A DNA stretch of 25,491 nt. Origin: a virus (lineage: Duplodnaviria; Caudoviricetes). Below the pieces are notes generated by a model that saw only the letters and a program-made list of their open reading frames with translations, searched no databases and was not told where the DNA came from. Where the stretch lies: positions 1 to 25,491 of IMG/VR virus record IMGVR_UViG_3300037044_000210, one strand, 5' to 3'. A program made the position numbers and the translations under genes. This document shows, one piece after another, positions 5,331-24,674 of the stretch (position 1 is its first letter; each line of letters starts with the position of its first letter).

Positions 5331-5912
5331 CTACTTGCCGGCTTCGGCCTTGGCCTTCTTGGTGGCGAGGAAATCCGCCTCCTTGATGCCGATGAGCTTG
5401 CAGACCTCGCGGTCGGACGCGCTCAGGGCGACGGAGTCCGGGGCGGTCACATGGGTCCGGTCGATCCGGCCCTGGACAACCACCGGGGCGACGGCGAGGA
5501 ACGCGCCGAGCGCAACGGAGTCCTGCTTCCTGGCCCACTCGAGCTGCGGCCCGTCGGTCAGCTTGCCGGCGGTGCGGCCCTGCTCGATGAGCTCGTCGCG
5601 CTTGCGGGTCTCGGCGGCCAGTTCGAGCGCGTCGACGCGGGTCTTGAGACCGTCTGCCTGGCGCGCCTTCTCGGCGAGGCCGAGGATGGCGCCCTGGGCG
5701 GCGTTCAGGTCGGCGTCGGCGCCCAGCGCGAGGGTATCGCGCACGGCGCCGAGGAACGAGTCCGCGGCGGACTTGACCTTGCGCAGGCCGGGCAGTTCGT
5801 TCTTGAGGGTTTCGATCTTTTCGACGACGCCTTCCGGCGCGTCCTGGTCCGCTCCGAGGGACAGGCTGTCCATCCCCAGGAGCCCGGCGAGAGCGGTGAG
5901 CAGCTTCTTCAC
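5331..5912 (-). CDS. Scaffolding protein (Mu gpZ-like) from internal in-frame start
   Basis: AAAGGAG SD followed by in-frame GTG at 5912 (VKKLLTALAGLLG). Coiled-coil, ending LSASDREVCKLIGIKEADF. The nested I/Z arrangement is known from Mu. Confidence 0.7.
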   Translation of the reverse strand: MKKLLTALAGLLGMDSLSLGADQDAPEGVVEKIETLKNELPGLRKVKSAADSFLGAVRDTLALGADADLNAAQGAILGLAEKARQADGLKTRVDALELAAETRKRDELIEQGRTAGKLTDGPQLEWARKQDSVALGAFLAVAPVVVQGRIDRTHVTAPDSVALSASDREVCKLIGIKEADFLATKKAKAEAGK

Positions 5913-6626
5913 GGACTTCTCCTTTGCGGGTTCGGTTTTCGGGTGGCGGTTGCGGGATATCTGATTCGCGCTGGCGGCGATGGCGTCGACCGCGCGGCCG
6001 ATCTCGGCGAGGGTGAGGGTGCGGGGTTTCGTGTCGGCGGATGCGGCGATGGCGTCGAGGTTGTTGATGGCGGGCTCATTCTCGAATGCCACGCTGGTGA
6101 TCCGGAGGCGGCCGTCGGCCAAGCCGCGCAGGACGGGGGAGAACCAGCGGAAGATGCCCTCGGCCATAAGGTCGCGGGCCAGGGGGACGTACTCGACGTT
6201 GACGGCCCAGAGGCCATCGTCACGCAGCTCCAGGTCGGCGTAGCCGAAGGTGCCGCGCCCGTAGGGTAGCAGGCGCAGGACTTCGGACTCGTCCACCCCA
6301 AACTTCTCGGCCAGGCGGTAGAGGAAGTGGCGGCTGTCCAGGGGAATCTTGCCGCCCTTCTCCTGGAAGTAGCCGACGATCTCCTGGAACATCTCCGGGG
6401 TGAAGTCGAGGACGATCCGCTCGTTGCCGTTGCGGGTGATCTCGGTGCGGCCGACCGGGAACAAACGCCAGGCGAACGGCACGCCGGAGGCGTCGCGCTC
6501 TATGGCCTGTGGCAGTCCGCCCGCCATCGCACCCAGGTCTTGCACGCCCAGCGCAACGGCGTTGCAGGCATCCGGCAGGGCCGCCGCAAGGGCGTTGCGA
6601 AATTCGCTGAATTTGCGGTTCTTCAC
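5331..6626 (-). CDS. Prohead protease (Mu gpI-like) with C-terminal scaffold
   Basis: GTG start at 6626 with AAGGA SD. Motifs: IPLDSRH, LELRDDGLWAVNVEY...A...FRWFSPV, SVAFENEPAINNLDAI. Confidence 0.85.
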   Translation of the reverse strand: MKNRKFSEFRNALAAALPDACNAVALGVQDLGAMAGGLPQAIERDASGVPFAWRLFPVGRTEITRNGNERIVLDFTPEMFQEIVGYFQEKGGKIPLDSRHFLYRLAEKFGVDESEVLRLLPYGRGTFGYADLELRDDGLWAVNVEYVPLARDLMAEGIFRWFSPVLRGLADGRLRITSVAFENEPAINNLDAIAASADTKPRTLTLAEIGRAVDAIAASANQISRNRHPKTEPAKEKSVKKLLTALAGLLGMDSLSLGADQDAPEGVVEKIETLKNELPGLRKVKSAADSFLGAVRDTLALGADADLNAAQGAILGLAEKARQADGLKTRVDALELAAETRKRDELIEQGRTAGKLTDGPQLEWARKQDSVALGAFLAVAPVVVQGRIDRTHVTAPDSVALSASDREVCKLIGIKEADFLATKKAKAEAGK

Positions 6627-6772
6627 TTGACTTTTCCTTCGGTGCGGGATAGGATGCGTACAGGAACCGTTGCGTCGTCCAAGGTAGTTAGGACGCCGGT
6701 GGCCCCGGTCGAGGCTGGGGAGCAAACGCCGGAAACGTCACGTGCAAGTCGTGGCTGCAACGGTTTTTTCAT
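6623..6772 (-). CDS. Possible 49-aa ORF bridging MuF and protease (antisense to tRNA-like RNA)
   Basis: ATG overlaps the MuF stop (ATGA) and its TGA overlaps the protease GTG (GTGA). No recognisable domain. Confidence 0.35.
   Translation of the reverse strand: MKKPLQPRLARDVSGVCSPASTGATGVLTTLDDATVPVRILSRTEGKVK
6627..6655 (+). promoter_or_regulatory. Sigma70-type promoter, antisense to the late operon
   Basis: TTGACT (6627-6632), 17-bp spacer, TAGGAT (6650-6655); predicted start near 6662. Confidence 0.75.
6663..6769 (+). ncRNA. tRNA-like RNA 1 with expanded anticodon arm
   Basis: Closing/acceptor stem GGAACCGTTGCG (6663-6674) / TGCAACGGTTTT (6756-6767). U8. D arm GTCC-AAGGTAGTTA-GGAC. Stem CCGGTG/CGCCGG enclosing hairpin CCCCGGT-CGAG-GCTGGGG plus AGCAAA. 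Variable loop AAAC. T arm GTCACG-TGCAAGT-CGTGGC. Ends in T6. Confidence 0.75.
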
Positions 6773-8133
6773 TTGGTCATGACCCCATTCAGTTCTGCGT
6801 GGACATCCCCGGGATAGTGAGCGGATACGATCTGCCAGCTCTCCCGGTCGCCACCGACGTTTTCCATGGTCGTGAATGCGCCTGTCTTCCTGTTCCACAG
6901 GTTCAGATAGGCGCGCTTCCCAACCATCTGGACCGACGGGCGCACGCCCGGCGAGAAGACCGTCTCGGCAATCGCCTGCTCGAACCGGCCATCGGCCAGC
7001 TCGGCGGCATGCCCTTTGGCCTGGTGCGCCAGTCCATAGCGACCGGCGGTTCCTGGCTCCAAGGCGATCTTGCCGGCCTTGATTCCGATGCCGTCGGCAA
7101 TCTCCCGGGAGAGGTTCCCGAGGACGATCTTGTCGGCGCCGATCTTGCCGCTTTCCGCGAAGCCCGCAGCCTGGCGGCGGATGAATGCGGCCGCCGCCGC
7201 CGGATCGCCGGCGACGGGGATCGTCGCCGACGCTGCGGCGGAGGGAATGCATCGCACCCTGCAACCCGGATTCTCACGGGCGAACGAGGCCATGCGCTCG
7301 ATGACGGCCTGGCGCATGGGGATGCTGCGCACGCGGCTCATGTCGCAGGTCTCGAACGCCTCCTTGACATCGAACACGAACCCGCTCTTGGGCGGGGTGA
7401 TGGCGAGGGATCGGCCCTGGTGGACGACGGCGTACCCCTCGCGGCCGCGGCCCGTCTCCGGCTTGGCGTTGCCCACGCCGAGGGCCTTGGCCTCATCCTC
7501 GTCGCAGCCCTCAATGGTGCATCGGCAGCCGAACTCCCAGGGGGGAGTGTGCGTGTCCCAAAAGGGATGATCCTTGGGGAGGACGAGGTTGTGGAGGGCG
7601 GCGTGTCCGTCGCGGGCACGTCCGTCCTGGGTGGCGATGTAGCGGTAGTAGGGCTCGCGCTCGACCATGTCGGGATCGAGGTCGAACTCGCGGCGGCCGA
7701 CGGCGGCGGCAATGGCGGCGTTCTGGCGGAGGACGAGGTTGAGGCGGGCCGTGGATGCGATGTTCGCAATGCCGCGGCGGGCCAGCCACTCCTCCTCGGA
7801 GACGCCTGCGGGCGGGGTCTTGGCACGGGCGACGTCGTCGGCCAGGCGCTGGGTCGGCGGGGGCTGCTTGCCGAGCCACTGCTTCACGGCGGTGCGGGCC
7901 TCGGCCAGGCCGATCTCGCCCTTGGTGTAGGCGTCGGAGACCTCGCGGAGTTTTTCGACCACGCGGGCCTCGGCGACCTTCGCCGAGAAAAAGCAATGGG
8001 CACGGACCTTGGGCGGGAAGTCCTTCGAGAGGGCCAGCTCCTTGCTGCCCATCTTCGTGGCTACGTTGGCGCGGCCGGCGAGCCACCGGTTTGCGGCGTC
8101 ATAGGTGACGGGTCCATTGAGGGCTGTGGTCAT
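6769..8133 (-). CDS. MuF (gp30-like) head morphogenesis protein with C-terminal putative nuclease domain
   Basis: MuF motifs RLNLVLRQN, YRYIATQDGRARDGHAALHNLVLPKDHPFW...PPWEFGCRC. About 190 extra C-terminal aa with YGLAH..KGH and WQIVSAH, reminiscent of BECR/PBECR-fold RNases. Confidence 0.85.
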   Translation of the reverse strand: MTTALNGPVTYDAANRWLAGRANVATKMGSKELALSKDFPPKVRAHCFFSAKVAEARVVEKLREVSDAYTKGEIGLAEARTAVKQWLGKQPPPTQRLADDVARAKTPPAGVSEEEWLARRGIANIASTARLNLVLRQNAAIAAAVGRREFDLDPDMVEREPYYRYIATQDGRARDGHAALHNLVLPKDHPFWDTHTPPWEFGCRCTIEGCDEDEAKALGVGNAKPETGRGREGYAVVHQGRSLAITPPKSGFVFDVKEAFETCDMSRVRSIPMRQAVIERMASFARENPGCRVRCIPSAAASATIPVAGDPAAAAAFIRRQAAGFAESGKIGADKIVLGNLSREIADGIGIKAGKIALEPGTAGRYGLAHQAKGHAAELADGRFEQAIAETVFSPGVRPSVQMVGKRAYLNLWNRKTGAFTTMENVGGDRESWQIVSAHYPGDVHAELNGVMTK

Positions 8134-20595: not shown

Positions 20596-22614
20596 ATGCC
20601 AATTTTCAGCCTTATAGATTTTGGAAATACCGCCCCGGTTTTGCCGATTGTTCGGCAAGAATGCACCGTCGTCAACTTTGAGTCGGAGGCTGTTGTTCGC
20701 GAGGCGGCAGAAAAGCCTACCGCCGCCCTAACGGATGGGCAACGCAAGGTCATGCTGGAACGGCTCAAGTTCTGCCGCACGATATGGGAGATGAGCAGGC
20801 AGGGGATGCCGCAGGAGGAAGCCATCACTCTCGTCTCCGCCCGTGTAGATGAGTATCCGCTTCTTTCCTCCCGCGGCCGCCGTGGCGGCATCACTGCGCT
20901 GAAGCCACACAACTACCGAGGCTGGATGCGGCGCCTTGGCAAGCGTCGCGGAAAACCGAACTGGGCCAACGCCAACGCCCTTGCCGACCTCTATGGGAAG
21001 AACATCCGCGGTGCCGCAGGAGCACCGATCTTCTGGAAAATCTTCAACGGGATATACGAGACCAGGCAGCAACTCAGCATTCGTGAGTCATATCGCCGCG
21101 CCATCAAGTCCATGCAGAGGGAAAAACTTTCCGGATTGCAATGCCCCAGCGAACGCCAGGTGCGGTATTGGCTGGAAAACTATGCGGATCACGGTGCCAT
21201 CGAACTCGCCAGGAAAGGCGAGAAGTACGCCGACGACCGAATCCTTGGATACATCCGGAGAGATTGGTCTCAGGTGCCTCCCAACTGTGCATTGTTTGGC
21301 GACCACCATCAATTCGACTGCATGGTCAAGGTCCCCGGGGAGAGGCCAGGAGAATGGAAATCAGTCCGTCCGTGGATCACTGCCTGGATGGACGCCCGCA
21401 GCCACTACTTTGCCGGATATGTAATCCGTACCGAAGATCCAAGCCATGTCCCAATCGTCTTCTCGCTTGCCTACGCAATACTCGAAGCAAAGACTCCGCC
21501 GGAATACCTATATTTTGACAACGGCAAGGATTACCTGAAGACGGGATTCACCGAGCCATTCATTCCGCGTGGCACGGAAAACCAGATATCCGTTGCCGGC
21601 AACCTCGGAATCAAGACCATCAACAGCCTGCCATATCGCGCCAGGGCAAAGGTCATCGAACGCCTGTTCAGGGAAATCTGCTGCCGTTTCTCAAAGACCT
21701 TCGGGCACTACCTTGGAAGCTGCCCAGGTGACCGCCCAGAATCCTCAAAGTTTTTTCACGACAACCCGCAATATCTGCCAACTATTCAGGAGTTTATCGA
21801 ACTGTTCTCGAAGTTCCTCTCCGAAGACTACCACAGCCGTCCGCAGGATGGCAACGCCCTGGACGGCAAGAGTCCCGCAGAAATGTGGGCTACGCGCCCG
21901 GAAGGCAGGAAGATTGACGAGCGCGATCTGTGGCTTGACTGCATGATCCCGTACACAGAAAATTGCCCGAAGGTCGGGCGCGGTGCCGGCATCCGGGTGG
22001 ATGGCTCGGAATACCGTTCCGACGCACTCTGGAAGTACCGTGATAAATGCGTCATGGTCAAGTTAGATGTCCTCGGCGGAGGACCTCCGCACGCCTTCGA
22101 TCTTGAGGGACGCCACATCTGCCAATTAGAACAACCGCCGATGGTGCCAGCCATCGCCACCACCGACGCCGACCGCAAGATGATTTCAGACGGCATGCGA
22201 GAACAGCGGATGCAGAAGAAAGCCCTTCGGGAAAGGTTGATGGCGGATACCGGTGGCCTTCACCTTCTCGACGCCAACACCATCGAAACCTTCGATCCAA
22301 GCCAGCCGTTCGAGATCGTAAAGGTCGGCCATGGCCCAGGAGCAGTCAAGGCAGGCGGGCACAACTTCTCCCTTCACGTGGTGAAGACCGGCGGGTTCCC
22401 GGCGCAGGCTGCGGCCGGCGATCCGGATGAACGCGAACTGACCGCCGGAGAAGCCAGGCAGGTCAAGCTCCTGGAGTTTGGCCAGGCACAGCAGAATGAA
22501 GACACGGAGCCGGCGGCCGATGCCGAAAGCATCGCCGCCTTTCATTCTTTCCTAACCACCAAGGCAAGGAGCAAGGACGATGACGACCAGGACGGCAGGA
22601 TCGGCAACTTCTGA
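20596..22614 (+). CDS. MuA-like DDE transposase
   Basis: Catalytic motifs GDHHQFD, YFDNGKDY and RAKVIERLF; upstream HTH region (PSERQVRYWL); YHSRPQ...SPAEMW; C-terminal beta domain. Confidence 0.95.
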   Translation: MPIFSLIDFGNTAPVLPIVRQECTVVNFESEAVVREAAEKPTAALTDGQRKVMLERLKFCRTIWEMSRQGMPQEEAITLVSARVDEYPLLSSRGRRGGITALKPHNYRGWMRRLGKRRGKPNWANANALADLYGKNIRGAAGAPIFWKIFNGIYETRQQLSIRESYRRAIKSMQREKLSGLQCPSERQVRYWLENYADHGAIELARKGEKYADDRILGYIRRDWSQVPPNCALFGDHHQFDCMVKVPGERPGEWKSVRPWITAWMDARSHYFAGYVIRTEDPSHVPIVFSLAYAILEAKTPPEYLYFDNGKDYLKTGFTEPFIPRGTENQISVAGNLGIKTINSLPYRARAKVIERLFREICCRFSKTFGHYLGSCPGDRPESSKFFHDNPQYLPTIQEFIELFSKFLSEDYHSRPQDGNALDGKSPAEMWATRPEGRKIDERDLWLDCMIPYTENCPKVGRGAGIRVDGSEYRSDALWKYRDKCVMVKLDVLGGGPPHAFDLEGRHICQLEQPPMVPAIATTDADRKMISDGMREQRMQKKALRERLMADTGGLHLLDANTIETFDPSQPFEIVKVGHGPGAVKAGGHNFSLHVVKTGGFPAQAAAGDPDERELTAGEARQVKLLEFGQAQQNEDTEPAADAESIAAFHSFLTTKARSKDDDDQDGRIGNF

Positions 22615-23662
22615 TCGGGCGCACACTGAGGAAAACCCTGCGCCGGAAGGCGGCATGAGTCGCGATGTCGTGAACATCGGTCTCAACATCTTCAAGAACG
22701 GGATCAAGGACTACTCCGAGCCGGAGCGCGAGCTGCTCGAATGGCTGTGGGGCTACACCTTCGACGAGCTTGCCGGATCGAAGTCGGCCCTCTGCACGGC
22801 CGTCGGCTACGACTGGACTGTCCTCTTCAAGATCTTTACCGGCCGTTACGAGGCTGGCCTGGAGCGCTTTTGCGAGTCGGTCGCCAACCTGCGCAAGCGG
22901 TCCGAGGCGGGCGGAGCAAGGTTTGTCCAGACCGTCGTCACCGAACGGATCGTCGAGGCGCTCGACTACGCCAAGGACTCCCAGGCCATGGTCGCGGTCA
23001 CCGGGCCGACCGGACGCAGCAAGACCCACACCGCCCAATGGTGGGCCAAGCACAACAATCACGGCCGCGCCCGGTACCTGCGCATCCCCTCTGGCTGCAC
23101 CCGCCGCACCATGGTCCAGCTCCTTTGCCGCTCGTGCGGCATCGGCATCAACGGCAAGAAGACCTCGGATCTCGAAGCCCGACTGTTCAAGGCATTCGAC
23201 TTCCGCAACACGATCATAATCGACGAGGCTGGCCACCTGCTCCCCAGGTGCGGCACCGGCGTCAGCGCCATCGAGTTTGTCCGGGACATCCACGACATCT
23301 GCGGATGCGGAGTCGCCCTGGTCTTCACCAACGTCTATCTGGAGGAGTTCCGTCACGGTCGCCTGGCCGCCTACTTCGAGCAATACCTGGGGCGGATCAA
23401 GTTCACCGTGACCATTCCCCAGGAGGTTCTGCGCGACGAGGTCTCCGCCGTCGTCCGCGCCTACCGCGGGGACCCTCCCGAGAAGCTGCTGTCCCTCGCG
23501 ACCAAGCTGGCGCGCGGCCGAGATGGACGACTCCGCACCCTTTTCGAAGATCTCCAACGCGCCAAGGACTGGGCCACCAGGCACGGCCGGGATCTCGGCT
23601 ACGAGGATCTCAAGGTCGCCAGCGACTGGCGCCTGTCCGGCGGCATCTGGCCCACGGAGTAG
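22580..23662 (+). CDS. MuB-like AAA+ transposition ATPase
   Basis: N-terminal HTH-like region, Walker A GPTGRSKT and Walker B IIIDEA; follows MuA. Start 22580 or 22655. Confidence 0.9.
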   Translation: MTTRTAGSATSDRAHTEENPAPEGGMSRDVVNIGLNIFKNGIKDYSEPERELLEWLWGYTFDELAGSKSALCTAVGYDWTVLFKIFTGRYEAGLERFCESVANLRKRSEAGGARFVQTVVTERIVEALDYAKDSQAMVAVTGPTGRSKTHTAQWWAKHNNHGRARYLRIPSGCTRRTMVQLLCRSCGIGINGKKTSDLEARLFKAFDFRNTIIIDEAGHLLPRCGTGVSAIEFVRDIHDICGCGVALVFTNVYLEEFRHGRLAAYFEQYLGRIKFTVTIPQEVLRDEVSAVVRAYRGDPPEKLLSLATKLARGRDGRLRTLFEDLQRAKDWATRHGRDLGYEDLKVASDWRLSGGIWPTE

Positions 23663-23665
23663 CCA

Positions 23666-23857
23666 ATGAGTCATAAACAGTCTCTGCCGGATTCCGCAGC
23701 CGAGAAGGATCGCATCCATCTGTTGCACGAGGCCATCTGCCGATGCGTTACATGCAGGGGAACAACCGACAAGACCAAACTTTGCCGCGTCTGCGCCGCC
23801 AACGAACACGAAATTGAGAAGTTGGTGAATGCCGGACGCGACGCCGTTTCTGAGTAG
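23666..23857 (+). CDS. Small putative zinc-binding protein
   Basis: CVTC...CRVC motifs in 63 aa. Confidence 0.55.
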   Translation: MSHKQSLPDSAAEKDRIHLLHEAICRCVTCRGTTDKTKLCRVCAANEHEIEKLVNAGRDAVSE

Positions 23858-23883
23858 CCATCTTTTTCCACAAGATATATTAT
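23855..23883 (+). promoter_or_regulatory. Putative sigma70 promoter for tRNA-like RNA 2 / gemA
   Basis: TAGCCA, 17 bp, TATTAT within a short AT-rich island. Confidence 0.5.
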
Positions 23884-23893
23884 AGAAAGAACT

Positions 23894-24000
23894 GGGATGG
23901 TAGTTCAACTGGAACAGAACGTTGAAACAAATTCCTGGGCGCCAGCAAAAGCTACTCCCGGGTGGAAACAAAAATGCAGGTTCGATTCCTGCCCATCCCG
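23894..24000 (+). ncRNA. tRNA-like RNA 2 with expanded anticodon arm (no assignable anticodon)
   Basis: Acceptor GGGATGG/CCATCCC plus G discriminator. TA at 8-9. D arm GTTC-AACTGGAACA-GAAC. T arm GCAGG-TTCGATT-CCTGC. A 50-nt arm (23922-23971) with CCTGGG/CCCGGG and AGC-AAAA-GCT replaces the 17-nt anticodon arm. Confidence 0.88.
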
Positions 24001-24011
24001 CCTTACAGCTC

Positions 24012-24674
24012 ATGCTTGACCACCAATCCATTGCCCGCGTGAAGATGGCCCAGCGCGACGCCGGCCTTGATGATGCAGCGTACCGCCAACTGCTGCTCGA
24101 CCAGGCTGGCGTCACGTCGTGCAAGGATCTGGCTCCTGACCAGGTGGAGGCGGTGATCGAGGCCATCAAGGCGGCGGCGGGAGAGCGCAAGGGGTGGTCA
24201 ATGCGCCAGGTGCAGACCTTCCGTCGGTATGCCCGGCTGGCCGGTCTCGACACGCCCAAGGCCTGGCGCGTGTGGCTCATGGAGCAGAGGCACATCACAA
24301 GTGAGCAATCACCGTACCTCGGTCAATCCGATTTCGACCAGGCGATGTCCGACCTTGAGCAGCTCATTGAAGACAACCTGTCCTCTTCCAAGCTCAAAAA
24401 CCCCACCTACTGGCGGGACAAGCTCCCGGCCCCTGGTCGCATCTCTAGCCGGGAACGTCACCTGATCGATTCTCTCTGGTCTGAACTGGTCGGCTATCTC
24501 CCGGAAGAGCATCGTGCAGAAGCTTATCTGCTAGGCATCGCCGCCCAGGCCGCCCGCAAGCACCTGGATTCCCTGGACAAACTCAAGGCCATGGAAGCCC
24601 TGAAGGTCATCGAAGCCCTCAAGTACAAGCTCAACCACGAGCAGGCCAGCCTGGCCGCCTCGGTTCCATTCTAG
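24012..24674 (+). CDS. gemA: GemA-like protein (Mu gp16, DUF1018)
   Basis: IARVKMAQRDAGLDDAAYRQLL....GVTSCKDL and C-terminal LDKL...EA.KVIEALK; ATG 24012. Confidence 0.85.
   Translation: MLDHQSIARVKMAQRDAGLDDAAYRQLLLDQAGVTSCKDLAPDQVEAVIEAIKAAAGERKGWSMRQVQTFRRYARLAGLDTPKAWRVWLMEQRHITSEQSPYLGQSDFDQAMSDLEQLIEDNLSSSKLKNPTYWRDKLPAPGRISSRERHLIDSLWSELVGYLPEEHRAEAYLLGIAAQAARKHLDSLDKLKAMEALKVIEALKYKLNHEQASLAASVPF

Follow-up and report, generated by a model that had tools for sequence, protein, structure and literature searches.

A tRNA-shaped RNA gene in a Mu-like phage with a conserved 50-nt insert instead of an anticodon arm

A transposable Mu-like phage was found to carry a tRNA-shaped RNA gene of 107 nt (positions 23894–24000, plus strand) in which a 50-nt insert takes the place of the anticodon arm. 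The gene lies near the end of the analysed stretch of 25,491 nt, referred to here as the window, and has one homolog, L294, in an unrelated prophage. It is a real RNA gene, apparently under selection, and a two-member variant of the anticodon-less tRNA-like RNAs of phages. It is distinguished by an insert whose sequence is itself conserved and by the fact that the small temperate phages carrying it are unrelated and have no tRNA cluster at the site. With slightly better than even confidence, we propose that the element is a non-decoding RNA that would be freed from the phage transcript and whose insert would titrate a host RNA-binding protein.

The record is classed as a provirus, and the sequencing runs that best match the window are groundwater metagenomes. 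The gene for the transposase (20596–22614), a gene for a MuB-like transposition ATPase (22580–23662, plus strand, phrog_296), a 63-aa ORF (23666–23857, plus strand) and a GemA-family gene (gemA, 24012–24674, plus strand, PF06252) are arranged in this order. The element, with the MuB-like gene and the 63-aa ORF as its upstream neighbours, starts 36 nt past a stop codon and ends 11 nt ahead of the gemA ATG. The preliminary description had noted this distance and the lack of a Shine–Dalgarno (SD) sequence at gemA, and both observations held. The gemA leader showed no anti-SD pairing (+1.2 kcal/mol, compared to −3.3 to −8.5 kcal/mol for five other ORFs, with what we take to be the anti-SD motif). 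The probable host is a member of the Lentisphaeria, because a GemA relative is present in a Victivallales genome and the GemA alignment was matched in 48 of 351 genomes of the class. Contigs of run X8 match window positions 23614–23648 in the MuB-like gene and then enter repeated sequence resembling a CRISPR repeat, and thus phages of this group appear to be targeted by a host in that sample.

A candidate promoter had also been described. A putative sigma-70-like site with a 9/12 match is present at 23855–23883 on the plus strand, within an AT-rich spacer (28% GC), but no promoter-like site was found at L294, so the site was recovered in the window without being conserved. The search returned two sigma-70-like sites, compared to 0.2 in shuffles, and the better one is on the minus strand (10/12, 23908–23879), where it overlaps the D arm and is directed towards MuB.

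The element matched the Rfam tRNA family RF00005 over positions 23894–24000 on the plus strand, from the 5′ end of the acceptor stem to the discriminator G, with 46.7 bits (gathering threshold 29, E 3e-7 for the whole window), and the anticodon part was left unaligned. Rfam and a T-arm scan found only one such element in the window, so the earlier statement that it is the second of its kind was not supported. ARAGORN at default settings called no tRNA and no tmRNA in the window, in place of the undetermined or pseudo-tRNA call that had been anticipated, and the 134 calls that it made in the window at relaxed thresholds were uninformative. The canonical acceptor, D and T arms were confirmed, with Watson–Crick pairing at all 16 positions of the body stems. 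The 5′ strand of the acceptor stem (23894–23900) pairs with 23993–23999 (7/7), and three of the seven pairs are changed on both sides in L294 and still paired. The D arm (23903–23920) has a 4-bp stem (4/4) and a 10-nt loop with GG; the loop length and the final ACA are common to L294, and the D-arm pattern did not occur in 100 window shuffles. The variable loop (23972–23975) is 4 nt long, and the T arm (23976–23992) has a canonical stem (5/5) and loop, with 16 of 17 bases identical to L294. U8, A14, G18–G19 and A15 opposite U48 are all present, the last of these being A15 with C48 in L294.

The letters at the 3′ end are G-C-C-U and thus do not encode CCA, in agreement with the preliminary description. 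Neither copy encodes CCA, and the discriminator is G in the window and C in L294. CCA was encoded in 44 of 46 tRNAs of host-class loci and in 96 of 299 tRNAs in other, mostly viral loci; a missing CCA is thus ordinary for phages. The parentage of the body gave a best score of 39 over 51 nt, to a phage tRNA-Asp(GUC) at L003, followed by 36, and the isotype cannot be fixed on these scores. The element is not an assembly error, because its letters were unchanged in contigs of runs X2 and X7, and X3 listed no difference (eight runs compared in all), although these three runs possibly belong to one sampling campaign. None of the 13 runs was listed as an RNA dataset with the element.

The insert spans positions 23922–23971, and its length of 50 nt agrees with the arm described earlier. 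It is closed by a 3-bp stump (23922–23924 with 23969–23971), which has one compensatory change and one broken pair in L294, and contains a 6-bp helix (23934–23939 with 23957–23962) with one compensatory change. Three unpaired parts are conserved in both copies, namely ACAARUU (23927–23933), ACU (23954–23956, 3/3 identical) and UGGAAA (23963–23968, 6/6 identical). The top of the hairpin, between the helix strands, is less conserved; it includes a CAGCAA that varies in L294. Alone, the window insert folded no better than shuffles (z −0.76, 70/300), and so the structural model of the insert rests on the homolog.

The element lacks a usable anticodon. Removing a putative intron had been said not to restore the anticodon stem, and the best of 47 single deletions indeed gave three of five pairs in the window copy and two in L294. 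No 17-nt internal stretch with at least four pairs and U33 was found in either copy. The earlier statement that the RNA cannot decode but keeps the tRNA elbow is supported by the intact body and by the absence of an anticodon arm from both copies. With a slightly lowered threshold, ARAGORN accepted 573 of 610 shortened variants of the element, which shows only that the body passes as a tRNA regardless of its arm. A stop-free frame that runs from 23922 into gemA differs in frame in L294 and was taken as chance.

The homolog was recovered with a generic pattern searched over the 351 genomes of the class, which gave matches in 47 genomes and one true homolog (1/351). L294 (G036:C305) belongs to the tail region of a prophage in a Lentisphaeria genome, where it sits upstream of the tape-measure gene, about 14 nt past a stop codon and in the sense of the operon. 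By tblastx, the contig with L294 matched neither the window nor any of three Mu-like regions related to it, and no partner gene common to the two loci was found. The two elements are identical at 77 of 106 bases (73%), and the inserts at 35 of 50 (70%), a similarity that none of 2000 shuffles reached. The alignment score between window and L294 was 48 for the insert, compared to 21 and 18 for the flanks. Of the 25 modelled pairs, 18 are unchanged, six are changed on both sides and still paired (three in the acceptor stem, one in the D stem, one in the anticodon stump and one in the insert helix) and one is broken. This pairing pattern was reached by 10 of 500 shuffles, and slid registers gave no such pairs. 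With two sequences, the pair changes are suggestive and fall short of a formal covariation test. The predicted minimum-energy fold of L294 and the shared model are 2 kcal/mol apart, and the L294 insert, too, folded no better than shuffles. The identity over the insert together with the compensatory pairs in an unrelated prophage shows that the insert itself is conserved, and the alternative outcome considered beforehand, a decayed tRNA with an unconserved insert, was not what the homolog revealed.

Among related phages the element comes and goes. The closest phage, L015 (MuB 88%, GemA 79%), lacks it: the alignment runs to about 23824 and resumes just ahead of the gemA start, the genes in the gap are unrelated, and no tRNA match was found in the L015 record. 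In an X8 contig, position 23662 is joined to 24011 via 136 other letters, and in the provirus L163 gemA follows directly after MuB. Ordinary tRNAs only were found in 30 gemA loci (19 of them also searched by Rfam) and 10 longer Lentisphaeria stretches. Since the closest phage lacks the element while an unrelated prophage has it, the element behaves as an accessory, movable cassette, as far as these comparisons indicate. In L015, an extra copy of the gemA start (5760–5850) lies about 360 nt ahead of the complete gene (6124–6780), which suggests that the slot between MuB and gemA is a recombination hot spot.

Further searches returned no third copy. No homolog was found in cultured phages and plasmids, in IMG/VR pattern searches (one pattern covered 21 of 64 parts), among the 22 loci matched by a metagenome pattern, or with nhmmer over 319 collected sequences. 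The viral and metagenome blanks do not bound the family, because those patterns would not match L294. Similarly, blastn over the 351 class genomes gave no homolog and missed L294 as well; its best match, L165, lies inside a long ORF resembling an outer-membrane protein and was rejected. The covariance model R2, of the insert, found only G036 and three weak matches outside tRNA bodies over 121 genomes. The covariance model R1 over 52 sources gave other hits at no more than 46 bits, with ordinary tRNAs at about 32–40. No description of this RNA was found in a literature search that was thin on subscription papers.

Going by general tRNA biology, the element would be transcribed within the phage operon in the sense direction, and host RNase P and 3′-trimming enzymes would likely cut out an RNA about 110 nt long that is stable. 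Such release and trimming are expected because both copies lie in operons in the sense direction and have a 7-bp acceptor stem and a normal elbow. The differing discriminators and the missing CCA in both copies argue against charging. The tRNA body would then likely be a stable stand that presents the 50-nt insert as a putative binding site, and the insert would likely titrate a host RNA-binding protein during infection, with the host partner and the benefit to the phage as our guess. This reading comes from the conserved single strands around a short helix, which resemble a protein-binding site. Three functions had been suggested at the outset, namely a decoy, a processing signal and a scaffold displaying a protein-binding hairpin, and the scaffold gained most from an insert identical at 35 of 50 positions in an unrelated prophage, from the compensatory changes and from the conserved single-stranded motifs. 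Against the scaffold stand the small number of sequences (two), the thin covariation, the A15–C48 combination and the broken stump pair in L294, and the promoter-like site that is not conserved; shared ancestry without a present function is possible.

An unlikely alternative is that the element acts in cis, the tRNA fold marking a cut in the operon transcript and thereby fixing where the message of the following gene begins and how that gene is translated. The element ends 11 nt before a gemA ATG without SD pairing, related gemA genes without the element show purine-rich leaders by eye, and the available part of a study on Bacillus cereus tRNA-Other describes a tRNA-like part within a longer regulatory RNA (PMC3399842). 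However, L294 lies in a tail operon, where both the gene that follows it and the spacing to that gene are different, and the gemA loci and longer Lentisphaeria stretches surveyed above carry ordinary tRNAs only. Also, a conserved insert is unnecessary for processing alone. The suggestion of a processing signal specific to gemA was weakened in this way, both by the position of L294 beside the tape-measure gene and by the related gemA genes that lack the element. A cis effect is compatible with the scaffold explanation and is possible at gemA, but it cannot be the conserved role.

Somewhat less probable still is a decayed pseudo-tRNA carried as a passive passenger. The element is rare (1/351 class genomes) and absent from the closest phage, its insert is not unusually stable and its discriminator is not conserved, all of which a relic could explain. 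In contrast, pairing was kept by changes on both sides in six of the seven altered pairs, and the insert is conserved to the same degree (70%) as the RNA overall (73%), between flanks that are unrelated. We give little credence to a decoy role in which the elbow alone would attract defence proteins that target tRNAs or anticodon nucleases. The elbow nucleotides are retained, and many phages have tRNA bodies with long middles, with a 7/7 acceptor stem in 54 of 86 distinct viral hits. But neither copy has an anticodon loop with U33 on a stem of 4–5 bp, so that there is no loop to cut, which makes the anticodon-nuclease version suggested initially a weak one. An elbow decoy needs no conserved insert sequence, the conservation of which it leaves unexplained, and the literature search found nothing on the topic.

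It is very unlikely that splicing removes the insert as an intron and leaves a normal tRNA, the proposal made for the tRNAs of Lak phages, whose conserved inserts are termed introns in the accessible text of that study (10.1101/356790). Both copies allow a relaxed bulge-helix-bulge to be drawn, but it is about 5 kcal/mol worse than the model with the 6-bp helix and its product would have G33, and none of the 47 single deletions per copy reached four stem pairs. Even less weight was given to a CRISPR-repeat mimic or an antisense RNA (Racr-like) acting via the conserved GUGGAAAC. A Racr is reportedly a solitary CRISPR repeat and would resemble the host CRISPR repeat along its length. Arrays in two Lentisphaeria genomes (L323 in G012:C8 and L324 in G016:C124, presumably type I-G from their appearance) have a 36-nt repeat that ends in GUGGAAAC on one strand, a match in which seven of the eight letters were imposed by the search pattern. 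The L294 insert showed a co-folding gain of −10.6 kcal/mol (4/300 shuffles), but the window insert showed none (204/300; duplex 162/1000), similarity beyond the 8-mer was at chance (289/1000 and 371/1000), and the comparison concerns one repeat that is maybe not that of the host.

Membership in a family of CAGCAA-stem RNAs found beside DUF2828 (Ro60-like) genes was largely refuted: the CAGCAA of the insert lies three bases past a strand of the 6-bp helix, the commonest spacing in that family, and the tRNA-like RNA of the related provirus L163 contains CAGCAA too, but the insert scored 0.6 bits with the family profile (77/500 shuffles) compared to 4–29 bits for held-out members, its best pairwise score was equalled by 224 of 500 shuffles, the site fell outside the top 2000 of 50,948 positions with the family matrix, and CAGCAA is not kept in L294. 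DUF2828 was found in 2 of 351 class genomes and in none of three phage records, each less than 50% complete.

The element shares with decoding tRNAs (RF00005) the 7/5 acceptor/T branch, the D arm, a short variable loop and the invariant elbow bases. It differs in having no 5-bp anticodon stem, 7-nt loop or U33, in the 50-nt insert, in the unencoded CCA and in a discriminator that is not conserved between the copies. Engineered tRNA scaffolds, in which the acceptor, D and T arms and a stem stump hold a passenger RNA that replaces the anticodon loop, have the same design; the element is a natural counterpart whose passenger function is putative. It is not a tmRNA, since both copies have G3–C70 in the acceptor stem where a tmRNA has G3–U70 and ARAGORN at default called none. 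The Twister-sister ribozyme (RF02681) was rejected as well (21.7 bits for L294 against a cut-off of 34, and no match in the window).

Several natural RNAs come close, foremost the Lak tRNA introns and T4 RNAC, as far as they are covered by the accessible parts of their sources. Lak megaphage tRNAs have been described with 'enigmatic introns' for which isotype and excision points were predicted (Devoto et al., 10.1101/356790). Like the element, these phage tRNA genes are unusually long and have a conserved insert around the anticodon, whereas in the element no excision restores a tRNA and the gene stands alone in a Mu-like phage without a tRNA cluster. The two are set apart by description, and the Lak inserts may include relatives of the insert studied here. 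T4 RNAC and RNAD, small phage RNAs of the tRNA region listed without a known role (PMC3014915), are likewise comparable by description, and the element gave no match in the cultured-phage searches. YrlA Y RNAs (RF02553) combine a tRNA-like module with a protein-binding helix and are encoded beside Ro60, and processing by RNase P and CCA addition has been shown for the Mycobacterium smegmatis YrlA (PMC4201824). They are permuted and end at the Ro-binding stem, whereas the element has normal tRNA ends; L294 scored 13.9 bits against a cut-off of 69, YrlA had no Rfam match in the window, and no TROVE domain was found among the seven window proteins scanned with Pfam in this incomplete record. The tRNA-Other of B. 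cereus is a non-translating tRNA-like element of mobile DNA, with longer transcripts and a position at an island edge (PMC3399842), in contrast to an element inside phage operons with a conserved insert. The 8/4 and 9/3 tRNAs, as presented in the accessible part of PMC5389517, differ from the 7/5 arrangement of the element, and the available portion of PMC12386605 holds nothing relevant to it.

tRNA bodies with over-long middles are common among phages, with at least 121 viral loci in 21 of 64 parts of the collection. Other aberrant tRNA-like RNAs were observed along the way. The related Mu-like provirus L163 has a different one (5787–5873, plus strand) located 1.1 kb downstream of gemA, with the same T stem, an encoded CCA and an irregular anticodon arm containing CCAGCAA, which ARAGORN called Ala(CGC); at 40 bits with R1 it scored like ordinary tRNAs and was rejected as a family member. 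CAGCAA was present in 17 of the viral hits with an over-long middle, and these RNAs form arrays (L025, L029, L047–L051, L056, L074, L079, L126, L139–L141, L144, L147, L150, L154 and L155) in which they stand alone or within tRNA bodies, often beside a DUF2828-vWA gene. DUF2828 genes were seen in 6 of 10 CAGCAA loci, with some ORFs scanned per locus. In several, among them L139 (Asn), L126 (Asp) and L029 (Lys) as read by eye, an anticodon stem-loop survives and the CAGCAA module separates it from the D stem. RNAalifold gave no pairs on the CAGCAA alignment, and the accessible part of PMC7919456 bears on these RNAs. In a Lentisphaeria genome, L280 (3300–5200 of G011:C1) has a DUF2828 gene, after which come CAGCAA RNAs of permuted tRNA-like form, tRNAs and an ORF that resembles RtcB by eye.

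Two tRNA-like genes in L017 (1757–1860 and 1955–2025, both plus strand) are missed by ARAGORN; one has a hairpin in the anticodon loop with the 5-bp stem kept, and the other a shrunken anticodon arm. Viral records of about 40–60 kb (L018, L031, L033, L034, L060, L061 and similar) contain several tandem tRNA bodies whose middles are unrelated, pyrimidine-rich and without an anticodon arm. In Lentisphaeria, L316 (3360–3462, minus strand) and L317 (681–776, plus strand) are long tRNA-like genes with encoded CCA and inserts unlike that of the window.

Phage genes of this shape escape ARAGORN, and annotation usually treats them as pseudo-tRNAs or as tRNAs with introns. L294 shows that body and insert are kept together and can occur as a unit outside a tRNA cluster. 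A bolder version of the titration proposal, which we advance tentatively and regard as doubtful, is that the element is a naturally occurring aptamer on a tRNA scaffold. As a cassette of about 110 nt, it would be swapped between the early and tail operons of small temperate Lentisphaeria phages and would borrow host tRNA processing for its release and stability, its domain of ACAARUU, ACU and UGGAAA binding and disabling a specific host defence or RNA-processing protein. If so, it would be a compact device for counter-defence or host control, of a kind not known to have been tested in phages. At 107 nt, the element offers an easy case for the role of phage tRNAs that lack an anticodon, T4 RNAC and the Lak inserts among them.
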